From: a virus
Lineage: Duplodnaviria > Heunggongvirae > Uroviricota > Caudoviricetes
Strand: one strand, 5' to 3'
Virus record (IMG/VR): IMGVR_UViG_2526164693_000022
Length of the DNA: 4,340 nucleotides
The first letter of the stretch is position 1. Every line of letters begins with the position of its first letter. Position numbers: made by a program. Positions 3,001 through 4,340 of the stretch are shown here, piece after piece.

Positions 3001-4340
3001 CTTTTTCGTTACGCTCTACCATCGCCGTTTCTTTGGCTGTATCGAGGGTAAGGTGGTAGTCTTTTTTCCCTCGCCCATAACCTATTTCCCGTTTCTGGGA
3101 AATAGCTATATAGTCCTGATTTTCAACGAATCCGTACTCTTCAATACGTTCTGTAATCCACGATGCAAAGCGTTTACCTACTCCAAGAAAAGTATGTAAA
3201 TCACGGGCATTAACGAGAAGAGTGGTTTCGTTGGCGATAGTGCCGTTGAATACGGGGATGAGTTGACTGGTCATGATGACCTCCTTATTTGTTTAGTTTA
3301 TAACCGCCAGTTAGTAGCTGGCGGTCGGGTGTCAACTGAGCCAAATAAGAAGCTCTGGGCATATTCCCCTTGCGGGTGTTGTATTACGCCTCTCCACCCG
3401 ACCTTTGTACGGATGTAACTATGCCAAATTGCAGGCATAAAAAAGCCGCAAAGCTATCGGGTGCGGAGACCGCTTATTTGTTCAGTGCGGTCAGTATGCG
3501 ATAGCTCTGGAGGATTTGTCAATCAGCGGAATATTGATGAACGGGTAACGGTAAATGCCTCATCCAGAAAATTAACGCAAATTCGCATCGCAAACTTGCG
3601 TTAATTATCTGAAATATCAAGTTAAATCCCCTTAAATGTTTGGGGCACTATTGGGGCAAAATGTGGTTGTTTGGGGCATATTTGGGGCAAAAAAGAACGT
3701 ATAAAGAACGGTGTAAAATTGATTTCTTCATGGTCAAAATGAGGTGTAACAGATTGAAAAATATATGCTCTTGGACGATCTTCGGTAATTCTGTGTTTTT
3801 AATGCTTCATGGTTTCAATATGTCCGTACATGGAATAATAAAGCACCAGAACTTTAGCCATTTCTAACCACTCCTCGTGTTATCTCTATTCCGTAGCGAT
3901 TCGCTACCACTTATTTAAAGATAAGACGTCCTTTTCAGAGTGCAAATTTCACAACCACTTATTTGATTTATAACAACTTTCACAAGCACGCAATTTTGTC
4001 GCAAAATGACACATTTTTATCTCATCGCGTTTTTTTAATCATAAGAGCGGCTTATGGATAATTATTGGAGATGATATCTATTCTCGCTAAGAAGCTGTTG
4101 CAGGATATTACCAAACGCGGGTAGAAACACGTCAGTTCACTAAGCTTAGTCCCACGTAGCGAAAATATGGCAGCCGCCATACGCCGCGTTAATTCTAGCA
4201 ATATGATGTCTATACCCAGACGGAGGTCAGTAATGGCAAACCATCGAGGCGGTTCCGGCAATTTTGCAGAAGACCGCGAAAGAGCATCAGAAGCAGGTAA
4301 AAAAGGTGGCAAGAGCAGTCACGGCAAAAGCGACAACTAG

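Follow-up and report, generated by a model that had tools for sequence, protein, structure and literature searches.

The window, meaning the whole stretch of 4,340 nucleotides that was analysed (IMG/VR virus record IMGVR_UViG_2526164693_000022), carried a hok/sok locus, a nin-region-type module of four genes (614-2108, minus strand), genes for a DUF4752 protein, a TraR/DksA-type protein and an AntA-type antirepressor, a non-coding region of 540 bp (3275-3811), a truncated wrbA reading frame and a short ymdF allele (Table 1). The antA gene and those following it were all found on the minus strand, transcribed away from the junction in wrbA, as an earlier sequence-only reading of this DNA had described. 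No integrase or transposase domain was present among the genes of the left 3.3 kb, and a domain search of every window ORF revealed no integrase domain, in agreement with the claim that no integrase is located at this end.

Table 1. Features of the window and of the attachment sites compared with it
Feature	Position	Strand	Evidence or remarks
mok/hok toxin ORF	1-213	-	Pfam HOK_GEF
sok	151-325	-	Rfam, 114.9 bits; forms with mok/hok a type I toxin-antitoxin locus (1-325)
185-aa protein, nin-type module	614-1171	-	
phrog_1222 protein, nin-type module	1174-1365	-	
Ead/Ea22-like protein, nin-type module	1367-1804	-	
phrog_3126 protein, nin-type module	1791-2108	-	
DUF4752 protein	2062-2379	-	Holds the recombination switch (2228-2304)
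TraR/DksA-type zinc-finger protein	2376-2597	-	
AntA/P22AR (antA/Ant-type) antirepressor	2645-3274	-	First phage gene inside attR
sRNA-Xcc1-family RNA motif, antA leader	3315-3403	-	Rfam, 69.1 bits (gathering score 53); E = 1e-11
Promoter-like site	3522-3493	-	
attP P arm (integrase-distal)	3498-3811	.	Conserved among two genera of wrbA-integrating phages (Traversvirus, Oslovirus)
Palindrome, 22-nt arms	3565-3611	-	Minus-strand RNA dG -28.3 kcal/mol, z -6.2
Four exact TTGGGGCA repeats, in two pairs	3640-3689	+	Starts at 3640, 3651, 3671 and 3682; 11-bp spacing within a pair
wrbA' stub ORF, 20 codons and TAA	3799-3861	-	ORF list; codons 1-17 chromosomal, Met18-Lys19-His20-stop from phage P-arm DNA
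7-bp overlap (core) GTTTCAA	3812-3818	.	Common to attP, attB, attL and attR; strand exchange within the core
wrbA codons 1-14, SD and native wrbA-ymdF intergenic/promoter region	3819-4232	-	Identity to Sakai; ~98% to K-12 (blastn, matching draft contig)
ymdF, short 35-aa allele	4233-4340	+	One KGG repeat unit fewer than the 57-aa K-12 protein
attP (phage)			TTCATG-GTTTCAA-CATGTC; attP-spanning sequence TTCATGGTTTCAACATGTC
attB (K-12)			GCCATC-GTTTCAA-TATGTC
attR (window)			TTCATG-GTTTCAA-TATGTC
attL (Sakai)			GCCATC-GTTTCAA-CATGTC

The truncated frame reproduced the N-terminus of K-12 WrbA over residues 1-18 without exception (18/18) and was preceded by an SD sequence (GAGGAG, 3876-3871) located 9 nt 5′ of the ATG, so the minus-strand stub with an intact SD that had been read from the sequence was borne out by the ORF list and by comparison with the K-12 protein. 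In blastn, nucleotides 1-54 of K-12 wrbA matched window positions 3861-3808 (E = 2e-22), and nucleotides 55-597 found no match in the whole window in any frame, either by blastn or by tblastn. The 3′ remainder of wrbA, whose presence left of 3799 in another frame would have spoken against an insertion, was therefore absent. The alignment of positions 3700-4340 with the uninterrupted K-12 wrbA-ymdF locus, which had been suggested as a check, showed no K-12 similarity left of 3808 and placed the start of the K-12 match at 3812, with the breakpoint in codon 17. The junction had been set after residue 18, followed by K-H-stop; this was right for the protein but not for the DNA, in which the first base differing from wrbA was the last base of codon 17, at 3811 (ACC vs ACG). 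Codon 18 (ATG, 3810-3808) was phage DNA matching wrbA by coincidence. Since wrbA DNA identity stopped at 3812, Met18, Lys19, His20 and the stop were foreign-encoded, and residue 18 was still Met because attP and attB share CAT beside the core, with ATGTC on the other side.

The chromosomal part (3812-4340) was identical to that of the O157:H7 strain Sakai and showed ~98% identity to K-12, from which it differed by a few substitutions and by one 66-bp in-frame deletion in ymdF. This deletion was bounded by 17-bp direct repeats (GCAGGTAAAAAAGGTGG), and the resulting 35-aa allele was common to Sakai, in whose record ymdF is left without annotation. In the wrbA-ymdF intergenic region, positions 4109-4115 read AGAAACA in the window and in Sakai vs CTGCCCG in K-12.

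In a megablast search of 5,426 complete E. coli genomes and 50,697 phage records, the window fell at the right-hand end of Stx prophages that occupy wrbA. From 2228 to 4340 it corresponded, with zero mismatches, to the right end of the Sakai prophage Sp5 (VT2-Sakai, Stx2a), whose annotation in the Sakai record ('prophage Sp5, lambda-like phage') stops at the base equivalent to window position 3811. The left 3.8 kb matched 466 phage records and was absent from K-12 at the wrbA locus, which confirmed its description as accessory DNA. A 151-bp junction probe was covered in full, at 98-100% identity, in 214 of the 5,426 complete genomes; in nearly all the others the probe match began at 3808, and among the matches listed it fell under an annotated wrbA gene. 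The junction-free genomes thus matched the wrbA side only, which is the pattern expected of an uninterrupted wrbA.

The attachment core was recognised from existing annotation. NC_004913 and AP004402 label GTTTCAA 'attachment site', and LC645440, LC645429 and LC645427 label it 'duplication due to insertion', while AP000422 (VT2-Sakai with its flanks) was 100% identical over 3275-3830 and is annotated with 'wrbA' and 'attachment site of Sakai-VT2 prophage'. Together with the identity to Sp5, this 7-bp site upheld the claim that a lambdoid/Stx phage had inserted site-specifically into wrbA. The four att sites (Table 1) were consistent with a simple exchange inside the 7-bp overlap. In the circular phage genomes NC_004913 and AP004402, sequence collinear with the window ran through GTTTCAA straight into the 3′ end of int. 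In Sakai, attL was located 62.7 kb from attR and held a tyrosine integrase, an excisionase and an annotated wrbA 3′ pseudogene; the integrase, of 436 aa, carried the Pfam domains PF12167 (Arm-DNA-bind_2) and Phage_integrase. Since int, xis and the 3′ part of wrbA lie at the Sakai attL, the window junction was assigned to the integrase-distal end, as had been supposed, with int found across the core both in this reference lysogen and in the circular genomes. The disruption of wrbA was likewise corroborated, in that its 3′ part was missing from the window and formed the attL pseudogene in Sakai, the gene being intact in K-12.

The non-coding region between antA and the core was resolved by distant search into two modules. 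Positions 3275-3522 travel with antA in phages having other integration modules, and positions 3498-3824 were ~91-100% identical among wrbA-integrating phages of two genera. The latter module, which includes the P arm, harboured four exact copies of TTGGGGCA, a number that 500 dinucleotide shuffles of the window never reached, no 8-mer attaining more than two clustered copies in them. Two more copies of the repeat (TGCCCCA) were found in the P′ arm, in the same orientation, inside the 3′ end of int (Sakai L004, 2726-2743, minus strand). The repeats were kept in all aligned variants, across both genera, and one phage possessed six copies through a 31-bp duplication. The P′-arm repeats lay 68-85 bp from the centre of the core and the P-arm repeats 126-175 bp from it. 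Because of these lambda-like distances and of the arm-binding domain of the integrase, the repeats are good candidates for arm-type binding sites of Int; a literature search found no published characterisation of the arm-type sites of Stx phage integrases. On the int-sense strand, the palindrome of the P arm lay ~230 bp past the core; its inner stem precedes AAUUUUCU, a segment that forms the outer stem as well. Its variants presented one compensatory change (G:C to A:T) and one uncompensated change. In position and form it resembles sib/tI of lambda, and by this analogy it may act as a terminator-retroregulator of int, or equally as a protein operator.

The part of the prophage adjoining attR was not that of a plain Sp5 copy, as it was recombinant left of 2228-2304. 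Window positions 1-2304 were 100% identical to a module that other lambdoid prophages (L006, L008) carry in their nin region, between P and Q, and overlapped the Sp5-identical part (2228-4340) by 77 bp within the DUF4752 gene in a single clean switch. As identity was 100% on both sides, the switch must lie inside the shared stretch 2228-2304. Collinearity with Sp5 ended at 2105, positions 368-2104 had no Sp5 match, and within 2105-2304 the alleles were of nin type up to 2227. The nin-type module stood in place of the Sp5 genes ECs_1246-1249, the hok locus was only 92% identical to that of Sp5, and the collinear order of attR, hok and tail genes that marks an intact Sp5-type right end was not found. 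None of the 5,426 complete E. coli genomes or the phage records covered at least 80% of the window in a single record, or even more than 60%, and the hybrid junction in DUF4752 was absent from both sets. The whole window was matched, with two mismatches, by the draft contig L007 (GCA_000462665.2 AVSC01000034.1). Both mismatches (2218 and 2227) were Sp5-type alleles, which puts the switch of this contig at 2195-2217. Its chromosomal flank was 99.92% identical to Sakai and 97.95% to K-12, and leftward it continued into a nin context (a 92-aa ORF, with 99.3% identity to the Sp6-like prophage of FORC_044) before the contig ended.

As regards the junction itself, the stub could also be regarded as a natural truncated wrbA allele, or as the result of a transposon or IS disruption in which no phage att junction would be involved. 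Nothing but the truncation speaks for such an origin, and it was ruled out by the K-12 alignment, the distribution of the junction and the comparison with attP, retaining next to no probability. The DNA left of the break was the P arm of attP, which adjoins int in circular phage genomes; an inverted-repeat scan of 3275-3900 detected no IS-like terminal repeats at the break; the ORFs tested held neither a transposase nor an integrase domain; the 7-bp core was an annotated attachment site; and nearly all genomes without the junction matched only from 3808 rightward, on the wrbA side. The 5′ end of wrbA on one side, the GTTTCAA core, the integrase-distal arm of attP and an uninterrupted wrbA where the element is lacking were all found, and the junction is almost certainly the attR of a lambdoid prophage that has the Sp5/VT2-Sakai/933W type of attachment and is inserted in codon 16-17 of wrbA. 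The stx region (between Q and the lysis genes), int and attL all lie outside the window, so that the Sp5/933W label denotes the attachment type and implies neither a complete nor a toxin-converting prophage. This assignment is in keeping with previous studies, in which wrbA was the Stx2a phage site of O157, with 39 Stx2a phages located there (PMC4645166), and in which Sp5 underwent excision, yielded an attP PCR product and re-integrated at the same locus in K-12 (PMC2669165). A further report cited Plunkett's attB in wrbA and discussed the Int/Xis excision that restores the gene (PMC7430833).

What lies behind the hybrid left part is less settled. A homologous crossover in DUF4752 with the nin-to-Q module of another lambdoid prophage, found inverted ~281 kb away in O157 genomes, would produce a chromosomal inversion splitting the Stx prophage, by which the attR-proximal 1.6 kb (antA, traR) would be joined to nin and excision would be lost. 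This is a serious possibility, falling somewhat short of an even chance. It would account for the single clean switch with 100% identity to nin-type sequence (1-2304) and to Sp5 (2228-4340), and for the continuation of contig L007 into a nin context devoid of Sp5 tail genes; in FORC_044 the parental modules stand in opposite orientation, 281 kb apart, and a crossover between them would yield the arrangement of the window, prophage-mediated inversions being documented in O157 (PMC7430833). However, the hybrid was absent from the 5,426 complete genomes, the other examples were only short-read draft contigs ending ~0.5 kb further, the reciprocal junction was not seen, and the switch differed between the window (2228-2304) and contig L007 (2195-2217), which fits recurrent events or assembly noise. 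An assembly error is the other explanation to be considered, in which the left 2.2 kb would have been mis-joined to the attR region at the 77-bp exact repeat 2228-2304, the real end being an ordinary Sp5-type one. The switch does fall inside a stretch identical in both parental modules, closely related draft assemblies switch at another point, and a separate contig from the same samples carries the module in nin context (L013). Nevertheless, three long draft contigs, independent of one another, show the same arrangement as the window, and assemblers usually break at such repeats and seldom cross them, which makes a mis-join unlikely. Given the nin-type sequence left of 2228-2304, the prophage that ends at this attR may have ceased to be intact and excisable.

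Taking this junction as the attR of an Sp5-type prophage, the stub would result from a tyrosine-integrase recombination between the phage attP and the chromosomal attB within GTTTCAA. The wrbA promoter, its SD and the first 17 codons would remain to the right of the prophage and run into the P arm, which supplies Met-Lys-His-stop, thus creating the frame of 20 codons. The rest of wrbA would be found at attL beside int and xis, ~62.7 kb off, fused to nine phage codons, as in the reference lysogen. There, the int stop TGA overlaps an ATG that opens MINHILRHV, to which WrbA residues 16-198 are joined in frame (Sakai L004, 2655-2686). The match of this fusion to the FMN_red profile started no earlier than profile position 17, and the fusion consequently does not include the N-terminal first beta-strand; from the known structure of WrbA, it presumably lacks the FMN phosphate-binding loop as well, and on these grounds the fusion protein is probably inactive. 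In unintegrated phage DNA this ATG begins a mini-ORF of 14 codons that spans the core, encoding MINHILRHVETMKH and then a stop. With the frame open through the mini-ORF in the free phage and through the WrbA fusion in the lysogen, the reading frame is kept through the core at both junctions. The source genome of the window would accordingly be expected to hold int and attL and to have lost WrbA function, wrbA being inactivated while the prophage is resident and restored upon its precise excision.

The closest known system is the attR of Sp5/VT2-Sakai (933W attachment type), which shares with the window the core, the P arm, antA-traR, the wrbA stub and the short ymdF allele, the differences being confined to the recombinant part described above. 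The same core is used by the wrbA-integrating Oslovirus group (phi191, TL-2011c, the O104:H4 phage P13374 and PPwrbA_EH2201, the last a non-Stx prophage sharing the att type). In this group the P arm (3498-3824) is ~91% identical and includes the repeats and the palindrome, and prophage records show the same wrbA junction; in contrast, the antA leader and antA module are not found beside the P arm, and the remaining genome is different. With the attR of lambda (P-O-B′), the layout is shared, in the order int 3′ end, P′ arm, core, P arm and then accessory genes, and the Sp5-type integrase is, like the Int of the lambda Int/Xis system, a tyrosine recombinase with an arm-binding N-domain. The annotated sites of lambda Int lie ~83-123 bp and 97-148 bp from the centre of the core, compared with ~68-85 bp (int side) and ~126-175 bp for the candidate sites described here, whose motif is unrelated to the lambda arm sites. 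The lambda core is annotated as 15 bp, whereas the overlap here is 7 bp, and lambda targets an intergenic region, whereas the wrbA target lies inside a coding gene.

The position of attR also raises the question of which transcripts may reach the prophage genes. In the integrated state, the intact wrbA promoter was situated ~590 bp upstream of the operon that runs from antA and traR to hok, on the same strand. The wrbA promoter is a stationary-phase, RpoS-dependent one. When the minus strand from the stub to antA was scanned against a terminator consensus, no canonical intrinsic terminator was detected, so that read-through from the wrbA promoter would be possible. The antA gene has a leader of its own, in which the sRNA-Xcc1-like motif is followed by a hairpin (3303-3325) and an SD; the phage record LC710661 annotates the same sRNA-Xcc1-like element. 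It was considered whether stress transcription from the wrbA promoter might cross attR into antA if the palindrome, in its minus-strand orientation (3611-3565), terminates incompletely, and whether the hairpin might serve as a retroregulator of int in the free phage. This scheme is regarded as quite improbable. If it were true, read-through would tie prophage derepression and Stx production to the physiology of the host, and the sib/tI-like retroregulation of int by the hairpin would be uncoupled upon integration.

The attR junction in wrbA is already known, being textbook knowledge and already annotated, and it adds no new biology. The occupancy of wrbA by a Stx2a-type prophage is a standard typing marker in O157:H7 and other STEC, and with a flank 99.9% identical to Sakai, recognising the junction served to identify the strain background. 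Its residual value resides in the uncharacterised candidate Int arm sites, in the conserved P-arm hairpin and in the attR-proximal recombination with the nin module. If this recombination is real, the toxin prophage would have been rearranged and possibly locked in place.
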